Sequence record: PZ534512.1
Direction: 5' to 3' (one strand)
Length of the DNA stretch: 64,000 nt
DNA from: a phage
The notes under the pieces were generated by a model, which made no database searches, was not told the origin of the DNA, and was given only the letters and a program-made list of their open reading frames with translations. The translations under genes were made by a program, and so were the position numbers. Positions 38,847 to 49,693 of this stretch are shown one piece after another (the stretch's first letter is position 1; the number at the start of each line of letters is the position of its first letter).

Positions 38847-39104
38847 ATGAAAACTTTCAAAGAGTTTGCTACAAAAACTGCTATCACTGAATCTTCTCAC
38901 GGTATGGAAGTAAAGCTTGGAATGGCTTTAGCTGAAGCTGAGCGTCTTTTCTCTCGTATTAAAGAACTTGCTGCTGCGGTCGATCCTTCGTCTTTTAAAG
39001 GAGACCAAACTAAAGTTAAAGCACTTTTAGCGTTATGCTCCGATGCAGGAGAAATTGCTAAAAATGGTTCTAAGATGAAGAAACGATTAGAAGATTTAAA
39101 ATAA
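38847..39104 (+). CDS. internal-protein-like small protein with capsid targeting sequence (IPI locus)
   Basis: N-terminus MKTFKEFATKTAITE resembles the T4 CTS (MKTYQEFIAE); sits at the ipI position after 57B behind its own early promoter. Confidence 0.6.
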   Translation: MKTFKEFATKTAITESSHGMEVKLGMALAEAERLFSRIKELAAAVDPSSFKGDQTKVKALLALCSDAGEIAKNGSKMKKRLEDLK

Positions 39105-41488: not shown

Positions 41489-41804
41489 GACAAGAAGCCG
41501 GGTCGCTACCGGTAAGTCGTCGGACTGATGTTCCCTGAGTAAGGAATTGCGTTAATAATCTTTGCGTTTATTGATGCCCTCTTATATCACAGCAGAAACG
41601 GCGCACCGAATTATCGATTCGAGGAAATATCTTTGCCGTAAGCCGAGTAGCGTTTTTGACGGAACGTTCGGATATGGTCGAGATATGGCCTTTTAAAAAT
41701 ATTGAGTAGCGTCAACTGCTTGATAACCGGGTTCAAATCCCGGCGTTTCGTACAAACACTTGCCTTAGCAGGTGGAACCCCGACAAGGTTGCCGCAAGGC
41801 TTAG
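41489..41804 (+). ncRNA. ORF-free region after tRNA-Arg, probable stable small RNAs (T4 species 1/2, rnaC/rnaD equivalent)
   Basis: No ORF; tRNA-like T-arm element (CCGGGTTCAAATCCCGG); ends at a strong terminator; T4 encodes two stable RNAs at this position. Confidence 0.5.
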
Positions 41805-41832
41805 CCCCGACCGAAAGGTTGGGGCTTTTTAG
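41805..41832 (+). terminator. intrinsic terminator (10-bp stem, GAAA tetraloop, T-run)
   Basis: AGCCCCGACC-GAAA-GGTTGGGGCT followed by TTTTT. Confidence 0.8.
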
Positions 41833-41880
41833 TATAAATATAGTAGTATATTAAATCCACGAATTAAAACAGGAAATAAG

Positions 41881-42354
41881 ATGAAATCATATACTCAATT
41901 TTTAAATGAAGCGGTGTTAAATGAAGCATCTAGCACCGAAATTCAAGCTGTCGCAAAAGCAGCCATTGCAGCGGGTAAATATTCTTATAAAGATGCTTCT
42001 GATGAATCGCGATTCCAGTTCGCACGCGACATGAAAGCGGAAGGATTTACGGGAAATGCAGTTAGTATGGCCTGGAAAAGTTTAGTTGCTACTGGCGCTG
42101 CTTTTGCAAAGGCTTCGGGTAAACCTGCTCCTAAAGCAGATCCTAAAGTCGCACAAGAGAAAAATATTGTTAAAGGAATTATCTCCAAATATGAAGCTAT
42201 CCTTAAAGAGCTTTTAGTAATCAAAACTGAAGGCCAAAAACTAGCTCGTGCTTATAGTTTCAAAGATAACCCACATGCTCACTCTCTTGAGTATGTTGAA
42301 GACATTCAAAAAATTATTAAAGACCGCATTTGGTCTGCTAAACAAATCAAATAA
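41881..42354 (+). CDS. internal-protein-like protein with capsid targeting sequence (157 aa)
   Basis: N-terminus MKSYTQFLNEA resembles the T4 CTS; bracketed by near-identical terminator hairpins. Confidence 0.6.
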   Translation: MKSYTQFLNEAVLNEASSTEIQAVAKAAIAAGKYSYKDASDESRFQFARDMKAEGFTGNAVSMAWKSLVATGAAFAKASGKPAPKADPKVAQEKNIVKGIISKYEAILKELLVIKTEGQKLARAYSFKDNPHAHSLEYVEDIQKIIKDRIWSAKQIK

Positions 42355-42361
42355 CATTCTT

Positions 42362-42389
42362 AGCCCTAGCCGAAAGGTTGGGGCTTTTT
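42362..42389 (+). terminator. intrinsic terminator (near-copy of the one at 41805)
   Basis: AGCCCTAGCC-GAAA-GGTTGGGGCT followed by TTTTT. Confidence 0.8.
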
Positions 42390-45134: not shown

Positions 45135-45490
45135 ATAAAGTTAAATATTCGTTTCCAGAGGCACTATTAATTCTTGCCGTATCAGCATTTGCAGCTCTTG
45201 CAGGTAGTCTTATTGGATTGTTAATTGACTGTTTTATTTTAAACATCCGTAGTAACGTCAGCGGTATAATAGATATAATAGAAGTTTGGAGTGAACTTCA
45301 TTATACTATAGCGATTTCATTATTTTCATTCTTTGGTACAATGTTATATTTTCATTATGATAATTTTAAAATAAATTGGCAAAGAAAAAAGGATTACAAA
45401 ATACAATTAAAGGAATATAATAGCTACATGTCTTATATTGAAAAAGAATCAATGGAAGAGTTTGTGAGTGATTGTAGGAAAATTAAATGA
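45116..45490 (+). CDS. small membrane protein, paralog 2 (124 aa)
   Basis: Two predicted TM helices; C-terminal FVSDCRKIK; ATGA overlap with next ORF. Confidence 0.5.
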   Translation: MQKPKLNKVKYSFPEALLILAVSAFAALAGSLIGLLIDCFILNIRSNVSGIIDIIEVWSELHYTIAISLFSFFGTMLYFHYDNFKINWQRKKDYKIQLKEYNSYMSYIEKESMEEFVSDCRKIK

Positions 45491-45975
45491 TTTTAAAAAC
45501 TCGCTGGTATGATTTAGATGATGGGGATGATGGCATTTCAGTTGATAGAGTTGACTGGAGTGGCTGTTCCGAAGATATGAAAAAAATGTTAATTAGGGAG
45601 TTTAGAATGGGATATCAAGCAGCTAAGCCATCTACTATAACAGATGATAAGTTCGTATGTATTCATAATGGTCGCGCTAAGTTAACGAACGCTGATTGGT
45701 TCACAGATAAAATTATGATTCTGTGGTATATTATTAGTCTTCCTGTGACATCATTCGTATTTTACTTTTTTATAAAAAATCCAATGGACAGAATAGGAGA
45801 TTGGATTCTTTTAACCATACTTGTTAATATTTTTACAGCAGCAATATTATCTGGGATATGGTGCGTGTTCATTGAAATGCCATGGCGGTTACGCAGACAG
45901 CAAAAGATTTTTGATGAAAAGAAATATACTCAAAATTTAAATAACTTTATCACTGAATGCAGGAAATTAAAATGA
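45487..45975 (+). CDS. small membrane protein, paralog 3 (162 aa)
   Basis: Two predicted TM helices; C-terminal FITECRKLK; ATGA overlap with nudE region. Confidence 0.5.
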   Translation: MILKTRWYDLDDGDDGISVDRVDWSGCSEDMKKMLIREFRMGYQAAKPSTITDDKFVCIHNGRAKLTNADWFTDKIMILWYIISLPVTSFVFYFFIKNPMDRIGDWILLTILVNIFTAAILSGIWCVFIEMPWRLRRQQKIFDEKKYTQNLNNFITECRKLK

Positions 45976-46412
45976 AAACACTATCAGCTGGTATTATCTT
46001 TATGACAGAAGATAAAGATTTATTTATGGGACGAGTTACTGGTTCTCGTAAACCTGGATTGATGGCACATCGCTGGGATATTCCAAAGGGGCGTGTAGAA
46101 AGTTCTGATTTAAGCGCATTAGATGCAGCACGAAGAGAATGCTTAGAAGAGACCGGTTTTAGCAATTATAATCCAGACCTTCTAGAAGACCTAGGTGTAT
46201 TTAAATATTCTAGTAATAAAGACCTACAGTTATTTTATTATACGATTCCAGTAGAGCATGAGATGTTTAGAAATTGCCATTGCGAGTCTTATTTTGAAAA
46301 TAAAGATGGTGTTATGATTCCAGAAATGGACGCTTTTGCTCTTATTCCTCGTACTCAGTGGCAATATGTGATGGGTCCTTCACTTTACCGAATAATGAAC
46401 AGCCTCTTTTAA
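45957..46412 (+). CDS. nudE: Nudix hydrolase NudE (151 aa; alternative start 45972)
   Basis: Nudix-box-like segment (GRVESSDLSALDAARRECLEETGF, REx2EE core); 151 aa, directly upstream of e as in T4. Confidence 0.8.
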   Translation: MQEIKMKTLSAGIIFMTEDKDLFMGRVTGSRKPGLMAHRWDIPKGRVESSDLSALDAARRECLEETGFSNYNPDLLEDLGVFKYSSNKDLQLFYYTIPVEHEMFRNCHCESYFENKDGVMIPEMDAFALIPRTQWQYVMGPSLYRIMNSLF

Positions 46413-46943
<531 letters not shown>

Positions 46944-46947
46944 AGCT

Positions 46948-46977
46948 GTTTACTTTCTCTTGCAATTGTGATAGTAT
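46948..46977 (+). promoter_or_regulatory. T4-type early promoter
   Basis: GTTTAC (46948-46953), TAGTAT -10 (46972-46977), upstream of the IP-like gene at 47032. Confidence 0.6.
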
Positions 46978-47031
46978 ATTCACAGTTACTTGAATAGATA
47001 AATTACTAATTAAAATATTTAAAGGAAACGC

Positions 47032-47349
47032 ATGAAAACATATCAAGAATTTATTGCAGAATCTGCTGCAGGACAGCGTGTAGAAGGCGGTTATATCTGG
47101 ATTGAACAAGTTGAGCCGCCAAGTCGCACTTCTACAGGTAAATGGAAAATCACTGTTGATGGTCCTGGTGGTAAACGTAGGACTCTTAAAGAAATTAACG
47201 GGTACTATGAAGAAGCTCTTTCTGACGCGGGTACTTATATGATGCAAATCATGATTAAAAACCCAGAAAATCGTTTTGCGGCTAGAGTTTTCCGCCGTAT
47301 TGGAAATAAGCTTTATGATGCATATTCTAAAAACTTCCCTAAAGAATAA
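47032..47349 (+). CDS. internal protein with capsid targeting sequence (105 aa; ipIII/ipII locus)
   Basis: N-terminus MKTYQEFIAES equals the canonical T4 CTS; basic small protein downstream of e. Confidence 0.65.
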   Translation: MKTYQEFIAESAAGQRVEGGYIWIEQVEPPSRTSTGKWKITVDGPGGKRRTLKEINGYYEEALSDAGTYMMQIMIKNPENRFAARVFRRIGNKLYDAYSKNFPKE

Positions 47350-47365
47350 AAATTAAAGGATACAC

Positions 47366-47839
47366 ATGAAAACATATCAAGAATTTATTACTGAAGCAGC
47401 TATTAATTCTCAAATTATTGCTGAATCTTTTACTGATCTTTTGAAATTTAAAAAAGGTCAAAAAATCACTGCTGTATTGGATGATGGTACAGAAATTGAG
47501 ATGGATGTACAAGGATATAATTATGCAGTAGATGGAAAACTGTATAATAAATCTCATGCTAAATTTGATTCATTTGACGACTTTGTTAATACAGTTGAAG
47601 ATGAAAAAACTCGTCGATCCATTGCAACTGGTGATGCTAAGGTTCTTATGGCACATGGTCATGAACGCATTCGCGCTAAACAGAATAAAATGGGTGAAGA
47701 TAATTTTGCATTAGTTGGTTATCAATCTGGTAAACAAACTTATGGCTATCAACGTACTGCTACAATGTATAATAAAAATGGTAAAATTGCCTTTGTAAAT
47801 AGTAAAGGTTCTATTCAGTACGTTAAATCGTTCAAATAA
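47366..47839 (+). CDS. internal protein with capsid targeting sequence (157 aa; ipII/ipIII locus)
   Basis: N-terminus MKTYQEFITEA equals the canonical CTS. Confidence 0.65.
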   Translation: MKTYQEFITEAAINSQIIAESFTDLLKFKKGQKITAVLDDGTEIEMDVQGYNYAVDGKLYNKSHAKFDSFDDFVNTVEDEKTRRSIATGDAKVLMAHGHERIRAKQNKMGEDNFALVGYQSGKQTYGYQRTATMYNKNGKIAFVNSKGSIQYVKSFK

Positions 47840-47917
47840 TATGGGAACAGCCTGGACCTCATTTGAGGTATTCCCGCCAACCTGTGATAAGGTCGAGCCA
47901 AAGCGCGGTAATGGGTA

Positions 47918-48517
47918 ATGCAGGAATGGACAACTCATGTGCCATGGAATGGCCCAAAAATTAAGAGAGAAAATATGAAAACATTTTTAACTGGCCCGTA
48001 TCTATCCCTGATGAATGCTTTTACACACCATTCTGATGCTAGAGTAGAAGAAATTTGTAAAAACGAATATATCCCGCCATTTGAAGAATTACTTAAACAG
48101 TACTGTACACTTCGTATAGATGGTGGACGTCAATCCGGTAAATCACTTGCTGTGACTAACTTTGCTGCTAATTGGCTGTATGATGGCGGAACAGTTATTG
48201 TTCTATCTAATACTTCAGCTTACGCTAAAATTTCTGCAAATAACATTAAAAAGGAATTTTCGCGTTATTCTAATGATGATATACGTTTTCGTTTATTTAC
48301 TGATTCTGTGCGCAGTTTTATTGGTAATAGAGGTAGCAAGTTCAGAGGTTTATCGCTTTCACGAATTTTGTATATAATTGATGAGCCTGTTAAATCTCCT
48401 GATATGGATAAAATTTACGATATTCATATTGAAACTGTGCAACACTGTTGTCGAAGCTATAATGCTGAAACAGGTGAAACAGTTCGTCCTCAATTTTTTG
48501 TGATTGGAATGCAATGA
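47918..48517 (+). CDS. predicted P-loop NTPase (199 aa; alternative start 47975)
   Basis: Walker A DGGRQSGKS and Walker B-like ILYIIDEP; occupies the slot where T4 has denV/vs.8. Confidence 0.5.
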   Translation: MQEWTTHVPWNGPKIKRENMKTFLTGPYLSLMNAFTHHSDARVEEICKNEYIPPFEELLKQYCTLRIDGGRQSGKSLAVTNFAANWLYDGGTVIVLSNTSAYAKISANNIKKEFSRYSNDDIRFRLFTDSVRSFIGNRGSKFRGLSLSRILYIIDEPVKSPDMDKIYDIHIETVQHCCRSYNAETGETVRPQFFVIGMQ

Positions 48518-48843
48518 TGACAGACACACAGCTTTTCGAATATCTTTATTTTTCGCCAAAAACTATTAAAAATAAATTGGTGAATCATTTTGAAATTTTG
48601 GCAAATAATAACATTTTGAGCGAATTTTATCCCAAGCAATACAAATTACAAAAAGGCGTATTCAAAGGATGCAGAGTTTTGTGCACTGCTCCTAATGCAC
48701 GGCTAATGAATAAAATTCCATATTTTACCATGGAATTTATTGATGGACCTTTTAAAGGACTAATCACCCAAAGTTTAATGGCATATGATTCTGAGCCATT
48801 TTTAATTAAAGAACAATCTTGGATAAATTTATTTTCTAATTGA
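48514..48843 (+). CDS. hypothetical protein (109 aa; vs.7 position)
   Basis: ORF overlapping the upstream stop (ATGA). Confidence 0.5.
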
Positions 48844-49213: not shown

Positions 49214-49434
49214 TGGCAAAGATAATTATTGAAGGTTCTAAAGATGTGCTAAATGCTTTCGCCGAGTGGTTTAGTAATTCAGGCGAACAGCAATTTAATG
49301 AAGCCTGGAATATGGGTGATATTGATGGAATTTATCCTACGACAGAAATTTCTGTTCAAGGATATGGCATTCATGAACCTATTCGTTTAGTTGAATATGA
49401 TTTATGTACTGGTGAGGAAGTCAAATATGATTGA
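49213..49434 (+). CDS. hypothetical small protein (73 aa; vs.5 position)
   Basis: ORF; overlapping start/stop with neighbours. Confidence 0.45.
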   Translation: MAKIIIEGSKDVLNAFAEWFSNSGEQQFNEAWNMGDIDGIYPTTEISVQGYGIHEPIRLVEYDLCTGEEVKYD

Positions 49435-49693
49435 AGACATTAAAGGTTATAAGCCGCATACTGAAGAGAAAATCGGTAAAGTGAATGCTATTAAAGACGC
49501 TGAAGTTCGTTTAGGACTTATCTTTGACGCTTTATACGATGAATTCTGGGAAGCACTAGATAATTGTGAAGATGATGAACTCGCGAAGAATTATGCTGAA
49601 AGCCTCGATCAGTTAACTATTGCTAAAACGAAACTCAAAGAAGCCAGTATGTGGGCTTGTCGTGCAGTGTTCCAACCAGAGGAAAAATACTAA
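49427..49693 (+). CDS. small protein at T4 vs.4 position, candidate Acb2-type cyclic-oligonucleotide sponge (88 aa)
   Basis: ATG at 49427 (ORF track starts at a TTG, 49391); gene order regB-vs.3-vs.4 counted back from regB; homology to Acb2 not verifiable here. Confidence 0.45.

Follow-up and report, generated by a model that had tools for sequence, protein, structure and literature searches.

The ip10 and ip4 genes downstream of lysozyme gene e in a Tequatrovirus: identity, cassette site and possible targets of their products

Two small genes lying directly downstream of the lysozyme gene e in a stretch of phage DNA open with the capsid targeting sequence (CTS) of phage T4, which raises the question of what bodies follow that sequence and what they would do in the host cell. 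[quoted passage not shown] We have analysed the locus within a 64-kb stretch of DNA (64,000 nucleotides of record PZ534512.1), hereafter referred to as the window. An earlier note on this DNA had located the two frames, described their cargo as unlike that of T4, and read each body as a candidate inhibitor of a host defence. Features of the locus are collected in Table 1.

Table 1. Features of the e-vs.8 region, with positions numbered from the first letter of the window
Feature	Position	Strand	Description
nudE	45957-46412		Upstream of e
Late-promoter consensus boxes TATAAATA (two)	46415-46422, 46428-46435	+	Pattern scan; upstream of e
Lysozyme e	46449-46943	+	Conserved gene bordering the ip cassette site on the left; Pfam Phage_lysozyme, E 1.3e-13
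Early-promoter-like element, GTTTAC-N18-TAGTAT	46948-46977	+	e/ip10 spacer; regex scan; tentative
49-nt direct repeat, copy 1	47019-47067	+	Shine-Dalgarno sequence and CTS-coding start of ip10
ip10 (ORF1)	47032-47349	+	Ip10 precursor, 105 aa; opens MKTYQEFIAESAAG / MKTYQEFIAESAAGQRVEGG
ip10 CTS	47032-47061	+	Residues 1-10
49-nt direct repeat, copy 2	47353-47401	+	Shine-Dalgarno sequence and CTS-coding start of ip4
ip4 / ipIV (ORF2)	47366-47839	+	Ip4 precursor, 157 aa; opens MKTYQEFITEAAIN / MKTYQEFITEAAINSQ
ip4 CTS	47366-47395	+	Residues 1-10
Spacer, 135 nt	47840-47974	+	Homology to the 5' portion of the T4 vs.8 coding sequence, out of frame here
vs.8 homologue	47975-48517	+	Conserved gene bordering the cassette site on the right; PHROG 1488, E 9e-79

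Identity and distribution of the two proteins

Both frames lie exactly where the earlier note had put them, and both carry the T4 CTS. The N-terminus of the ORF1 product (MKTYQEFIAE) matches the CTS of T4 IPII and IPIII at 10 of 10 residues, and that of the ORF2 product (MKTYQEFITE) at nine of 10; each of the two T4 proteins (NC_000866) begins MKTYQEFIAEA. The first 24 nt are the same in the two genes (ATGAAAACATATCAAGAATTTATT) and occur as two exact copies in the window, one at each gene start, whereas 100 shuffles yielded no copy even with three mismatches allowed. In a blastn self-comparison of the window, the two copies of the longer 49-nt repeat were 87.8% identical.

The lengths and bodies differ from those of T4 IPII (100 aa) and IPIII (193 aa), as the earlier note had stated. 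When the CTS was removed, the best blastp matches of the mature regions to IPII/IPIII had E values of 2.4-3.1, and equivalence to these proteins was rejected; near-identity to IPII or IPIII, which the earlier note had singled out as the result that would speak against it, was looked for and not found. The full-length proteins do match T4 IPI weakly (E 0.14 over 11 residues for Ip10, and E 6e-4 among three subject sequences for Ip4), but these alignments start from residue 1, in the shared CTS, which accounts for them, none being significant once the CTS is removed. A relationship between Ip4 and IPI* was likewise rejected, since hhalign, with a profile of 15 Ip4 relatives, gave it a probability of 0.4%.

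The two products are almost certainly Ip10 (ORF1) and Ip4 (ORF2) of the T-even phages. The gene names ip10 and ip4 have been in use since the 1990s. ORF1 is 100% identical to the "Ip10 internal head protein" of phage PP01 and 71-72% identical to the "Ip10" of Shigella phage SP18 (71%) and of phage VR25. It matches PHROG 3966 (E 2.7e-34), a family of unknown function, and no Pfam family was found for it. ORF2 is 99.4% identical to the "IpIV" of PP01, 99.3% identical to proteins of T2 and RB32, the latter recorded as "Ip4" and "similar to T2, RB70 Ip4", and 98% identical to UniProt Q38388, "Ip4 [Enterobacteria phage K3]". Its match to Pfam DUF7412 spans the whole protein (residues 1-157 of 157; E 6e-96; 319 bits, the Pfam gathering score being 27), and it also matches PHROG 3155, "internal virion protein" (E 8e-102).

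Both bodies are widespread. Searches by tblastn with the CTS removed recovered the Ip10 body from 190 phage records, identity reaching at least 95% in 132, with relatives at ~50% identity in RB69 (ORF124c) and in T4-like phages of Enterobacter and Cronobacter. For the Ip4 body there were 471 records, of which 309 reached the same 95% threshold, with relatives at 60-75% identity in T4-like phages of Klebsiella, Salmonella, and Serratia; Ip10/Ip4 relatives also occur in Mosigvirus and Karamvirus. Over the 2.2 kb from 46400 to 48600, 694 phage records match, nearly all of them Tequatrovirus, and 311 cover at least 80% of the interval. The closest is Escherichia phage SholemSchwarzbard, at 99.7% identity, and the phage represented by the window is a Tequatrovirus.

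The cargo is indeed unlike that of T4, but comparison with the T-even repertoire found it already named. Both bodies are catalogued and very common, with nothing new at the sequence level, and the discovery value of finding them in a further genome is small, as Ip10 and Ip4 are already present in hundreds of genomes. Many records mislabel the two proteins as "IpII" or "IpIII", or call them "hypothetical"; given this, consistent Ip10/Ip4 annotation would help.

Predicted structures are of moderate confidence. The AlphaFold2 model of Ip4 (pLDDT 70) comprises an N-terminal helix, a beta-hairpin region, short helices, and a C-terminal sheet, and that of Ip10 (pLDDT 62) has a beta-beta-beta-alpha core modelled at 72-85. 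This topology raised the suspicion of a relationship between Ip10 and Escherichia coli YegP/DUF1508, which was rejected by profile comparison. An exhaustive profile search identified one credible distant relative of Ip10, a CTS protein of 149 aa (P0020; opens MKTYQEFIAEAAK) that has extra residues after the CTS and a C-terminal half that aligns with Ip10; HMMER reported the match as two stretches. Further Ip10 profile matches, in P0019 and P0021 (Ig-like, PKD or Fib_succ_major domains) and in P0022 (CHU_C type IX secretion signal domain), pair repeats of large proteins with the Thr/Gly-rich beta-hairpin of Ip10 and were judged to be composition-driven rather than homologous.

The cassette site between e and vs.8

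The e-vs.8/denV interval is one of the cassette loci in which T4-type ip genes sit, 57B-tRNA being the other. The borders of the site are supported by annotation: the counterpart of 46449-46943 is labelled e in PP01, T4, and RB32, and that of 47975-48517 is labelled vs.8 in PP01 and RB32, although the vs.8 start here may be 47918. Nucleotide homology to T4 (blastn) is present upstream of e and continues over the first 40 nt of ipIII before breaking at 47071. It picks up again at 47839, where the stop codon of ip4 ends; the matching point in T4 is the end of denV. Because the break lies inside the CTS-coding part and homology returns at 47839, the cargo alone has been swapped. The CTS-coding sequence is the left recombination joint and position 47839 the right edge of the exchanged cassette. 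No denV gene was found in the whole 64-kb window. The 135-nt spacer that follows ip4 is, from its alignment, what is left of the 5' end of vs.8, shifted out of frame relative to T4; a structured RNA or terminator in this GC-richer segment was considered and rejected, there being no Rfam match and a fold z-score of -0.83.

The earlier note had called internal protein loci hypervariable, and the comparison of relatives bears this out, with six layouts seen in the e-vs.8 interval. These are e-ipIII-ipII-denV-vs.8 in T4; e-denV-ip10-ip4-vs.8 in Ge15 and the slur phages; e-ip10-ip4-vs.8 in the window and PP01; e-ip4-vs.8 in T2 and RB32; e-denV-vs.8, with no ip gene, in Bas37; and e-ip-denV-ip-ORF124c (Ip10-like)-ORF123c-vs.8 in RB69. 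A scan of ~36 T4-like loci, including 22 located via lysozyme e in IMG/VR, revealed at least 12 sequence-unrelated families of CTS-bearing ORFs, with one to four per locus. Within this variety one pairing is constant: Ip4 lies 15-16 nt downstream of Ip10 in each of the 11 loci that have a 105-aa Ip10.

Other genes of related kinds were observed elsewhere in the window. The ipI locus encodes an 85-aa CTS protein (38847-39104; PHROG 3499, "internal head protein"). A second ORF, at 41881-42354, encodes a 157-aa protein that is absent from T4 and is matched by 512 phage records, being called "hypothetical" in every record among the matches listed. Its N-terminus is CTS-like (MKSYTQFLNE|AVLNE|A), and its relatives begin with the canonical MKTYNEFLNES; a perfect late promoter stands ~40 nt upstream, and a repeated terminator-like hairpin is found on its flanks. 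This ORF is a possible candidate for a further internal protein, the fourth in the window, and may mark a third ip locus that has gone unrecognised. Downstream of the cassette site, a vs.4 homologue of the Acb2/Tad1 family (~49427-49693) is another counter-defence gene in the neighbourhood.

Predicted processing and expression

In both precursors the CTS is closed by a motif of the type recognised by the prohead protease gp21 (Leu/Ile-x-Glu followed by a small residue), FIAE|S in Ip10 and FITE|A in Ip4, and gp21 is predicted to cut each after Glu10. The predicted mature Ip10 is a protein of 95 aa (10.8 kDa, pI 9.6), and mature Ip4 one of 147 aa (16.5 kDa, pI 9.1). In Ip4 the hydrophobic-x-Glu pattern recurs at Glu20 (IIAE|S), a residue that is nearly invariant in the Ip4 family, and a cut there would leave 137 aa. 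Such a second cut is plausible in view of T4 IPI, whose 95-aa precursor is shortened by 19 residues to give the 76-aa IPI* (PDB 2JUB).

Each gene is preceded, 5-6 nt before its ATG, by a Shine-Dalgarno sequence (AAAGGAAAC for ip10 and AAAGGATAC for ip4). Apart from the two boxes upstream of e, a pattern scan of 46000-48600 found no late-promoter consensus box, and none lies immediately before ip10. No plus-strand terminator was predicted in 46300-48200, including the interval between e and the ip genes. On the simplest reading, late transcripts of ip10-ip4 are likely to be read-through products from the late promoters of e. The early-promoter-like element in the e/ip10 spacer is a consensus match only and was not listed by a generic sigma-70 scan.

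Possible targets of Ip10 and Ip4

A literature search found no report on the function of Ip4 or Ip10, or on their presence in the virion, processing or ejection, and any account of what they do has to draw on better characterised relatives in delivery. T4 IPI* (Ip1) inhibits the GmrSD of strain CT596, while Ip2 inhibits GmrSD-ECOR21 and Ip3 inhibits GmrSD-ECOR17, cross-protection being absent (PMC12373910); the CTS protein Bas37_0260 inhibits McrBC (bioRxiv 10.1101/2025.11.20.689424). All four T-even CTS proteins characterised so far thus block type IV restriction, and a like model was chosen for Ip10 and Ip4 on this ground.

The model that we infer for packaging, cleavage, injection and class of target runs as follows. 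Ip10 and Ip4 precursors would be made, probably late, from transcripts of the e late promoters, and the 10-residue CTS would bring them into the prohead scaffolding core. There gp21 would cleave after Glu10, with a possible second cut after Glu20 in the case of Ip4. The mature proteins, which are basic (pI 9.1-9.6), would remain among the packaged DNA and be ejected with it into the cell, where each would bind one specific host nuclease active against glucosyl-hydroxymethylcytosine DNA (type IV) and block it. A type IV (modification-dependent) restriction enzyme as the target is suggested by analogy with the four precedents, and we regard this as evenly poised between true and false. The lack of a late promoter immediately upstream of ip10 counts against the model.

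The anti-defence reading offered in the earlier note agrees with these four precedents but meets a difficulty in the one relevant screen. In the work of Silas et al. (2025), "ip4-10" gave no reproducible inhibition of the GmrSD variants in their panel (Supplementary Fig. 9), with sequences that may differ from those described here (PMC12373910). That screen, with 15 groups synthesised and eight systems active, sampled a fraction of a very large GmrSD diversity (PMC12373910). T2 offers a further constraint: it carries Ip4 and is nevertheless restricted by GmrSD-ECOR17 and GmrSD-ECOR21, so Ip4 blocks neither enzyme.

The same screen is also a point in favour of a different target. If packaged and injected by the same route, Ip10 and/or Ip4 might act on some other early-acting host defence or function that is not type IV restriction, an alternative that we consider rather unlikely but worth weighing. 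It is favoured by the spread of homologues across several genera and hosts of T4-like phages; the DNA of these phages may be modified in different ways, as would suit a target beyond the nucleases that act on glucosyl-hydroxymethylcytosine. It is favoured, too, by an Acb2-family inhibitor of a non-nuclease defence in the wider locus, and by the bodies themselves, which resemble no known Ip inhibitor: no likeness in sequence or fold was detected to IPI*, Ip2, Ip3 or Bas37_0260, searches of PDB chains (by sequence and profile), PADLOC, and NCBIfam gave nothing significant for Ip10 or Ip4, and a Foldseek search of BFVD with Ip4 returned Ip4 itself as the sole match. Against it stand the type IV targets of all four CTS proteins whose target is known, the partial coverage of GmrSD diversity in the screen, and the absence of positive evidence for any other target. 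It is conceivable, though rather unlikely, that Ip10 and/or Ip4 neutralise host immunity outside GmrSD/McrBC, possibly through a system still undescribed.

A mainly physical role would dispense with a target altogether. Ip10 and Ip4 would then be basic, lysine-rich fillers that neutralise DNA charge and aid packaging or ejection, and the diversity of cargo would reflect weak constraint. Their predicted mature pI values are in keeping with this, and the lysines of internal proteins in T4 heads touch the phosphates of the DNA and may make packaging faster (PMC3012670). Their pattern of conservation, however, is not that of a generic polycation. Compared with Ge15, ip10 has 28 synonymous and four non-synonymous codon differences and ip4 has 15 and two, comparable to lysozyme e (25 and two), and 49 positions are invariant among Ip4 relatives at 61-99% identity. 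With synonymous changes far in excess of non-synonymous ones, and with these invariant sites, both genes are under purifying selection, and such strong conservation within an allele favours a specific folded function. Both AlphaFold2 models predict folded, beta-rich cores; some relatives, such as Bas37, do without an ip gene at the e-vs.8 locus; and the swapping of cargo behind a CTS that stays in place is typical of an arms race. A mainly physical role is therefore improbable.

That the frames are relics, with a CTS left by recombination history and products not packaged or not made, is scarcely credible: the lack of a dedicated late promoter speaks for it, but the frames are intact, have good Shine-Dalgarno sequences and evident purifying selection, are mostly found at 95% identity or more in the 190 (Ip10) and 471 (Ip4) phage records, and are adjacent in every locus that has a 105-aa Ip10.

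Inhibition of a type IV enzyme is the reading that we favour, and its interest lies in the targets. Ip4 to Ip10 are T-even internal proteins that are still without targets, and those that have been characterised are highly specific type IV inhibitors. The classic phage T2 carries Ip4, and RB69-like and Enterobacter phages carry Ip10, so identifying the targets would close a visible gap in the T-even counter-defence repertoire and would aid host-range prediction for therapeutic T4-like phages. Should the target instead lie outside GmrSD/McrBC, the common and conserved Ip10 and Ip4 could be used as baits to find the immunity system concerned.

Among known systems, the closest counterparts of the ORF2 product are the Ip4 proteins of T2, K3, RB32, RB70, and PP01, from which it differs by one or two substitutions and which it resembles in its CTS and in its position after e; Ip4 stands alone at the T2 and RB32 locus, whereas here ip10 precedes ip4. 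T4 IPII and IPIII have in common with Ip10 and Ip4 the e-vs.8 slot, the CTS, the predicted gp21 site, a similar size, and a basic mature pI (9.56 and 9.65, close to 9.6 and 9.1), but their mature regions are unrelated in sequence. The target of Ip4 must also differ from those of IPII and IPIII, given that T2 is restricted by GmrSD-ECOR17 and GmrSD-ECOR21 despite having Ip4. T4 IPI* (PDB 2JUB) and Bas37_0260, both small CTS-delivered inhibitors that are injected, are the precedents on which the working model of Ip10 and Ip4 is built.

Candidate internal protein at a third locus

Analysis of the sequence identified the 157-aa ORF at 41881-42354 as a candidate internal protein gene that has so far gone unannotated and would constitute a third locus for such proteins; T4 has no gene at this slot. 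The ORF begins with a CTS-like N-terminus (capsid targeting sequence; MKSYTQFLNE/AVLNE/ASS, slashes marking predicted gp21 cut sites), its diverged homologues start with the canonical MKTYNEFLNES, and Glu15 is invariant. The predicted mature product has a pI of 9.5. The ORF is preceded, at a distance of approximately 40 nt, by a perfect late promoter (TATAAATA, 41833-41840), which itself immediately follows a hairpin and T-run; the same hairpin recurs 3' of the stop codon. The ORF is assigned to PHROG 2280 (unknown function), and its homologue in the related phage RB32 is RB32ORF133c. Matches were found in 512 phage records, the label being "hypothetical" in all records among the matches listed.

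Features of the window discussed in this section
Feature	Coordinates	Strand	Context
85-aa ORF	38847-39104	+	ipI locus; directly 3' of 57B homologue
157-aa ORF	41881-42354	+	between tRNA/stable-RNA cluster and e.8; flanks 41803-41840 and 42362-42389
162-aa ORF	45487-45975	+	between e.3 and nudE
GC-richer 135-nt gap	47840-47974		after ip4; homology to 5' coding part of T4 vs.8, frameshifted
vs.8 homologue	47918/47975-48517		two possible starts
vs.4 homologue	about 49427-49693 (ORF listed as 49391-49693)	+	Pfam Acb2_Tad1_hairpin

The ipI locus and relatives of Ip10

The 85-aa ORF at the ipI locus (MKTFKEFATKTAITE/SSHG...) has a match in PHROG 3499 (E = 3e-49), a family labelled "internal head protein", and is similar to T4 IPI (MKTFKEFTSTTTPVSTITE/A) at the N-terminus. 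Adjoining it, no second ip gene was seen, nor was any nearby ORF sized like the 77-aa McrBC inhibitor Bas37_0260, as judged by size rather than sequence.

A profile of Ip10, the 105-aa internal protein encoded downstream of the lysozyme gene e, recovered a 149-aa relative from outside the window (P0020) that carries a canonical CTS, MKTYQEFIAEAAK. Residues 69-148 of this protein, its C-terminal half, align to Ip10 residues 13-96; because HMMER matched two stretches, P0020 may carry a duplicated Ip10 module. Within the Ip10 cluster, E. coli or Shigella is named as the source of some members, and an identical Ip10 is recorded on one 489-kb contig. Since T4-like phages are not known to lysogenise, these bacterial labels and the 489-kb contig probably reflect phage contamination or chimeric assembly. 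All six contigs inspected for this cluster are phage genomes of about 167-170 kb.

Variable sites and counter-defence genes around e and vs.8

The vs.4 homologue lies 1.6 kb downstream of ip4, the second internal protein gene after e, and matches the anti-CBASS sponge family Acb2_Tad1_hairpin (E = 1.2e-19); counter-defence genes are therefore clustered in this arm.

In relatives, the UV-repair gene denV is found either between e and ip10 or 3' of ipII, and its expected sites in the window are 46944-47031 or 47840-47974; the gene is absent here, a tblastn search with T4 DenV having found no match across all 64 kb. No sign of RNA structure was seen in the 135-nt gap after ip4, whose fold z-score is -0.83, and a comparison with Rfam gave no hit. 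A 33-aa ORF with a TTG start, MRYSRQPVIRSS..., is the counterpart of the T4 Vs.8 N-terminus. As the 5' part of vs.8 is frameshifted, Vs.8 comprises 180 or 199 aa here, compared to 219 aa in T4.

The e.3-nudE interval is another variable slot. Its 162-aa ORF, to whose relatives a look-up of the encoding contigs assigned Pfam Phage_T4_Y06M, also occurs in the related phages SholemSchwarzbard and Bas37 (bas37_0236); PP01 lacks it, and in T4 the shorter e.2 takes its place.
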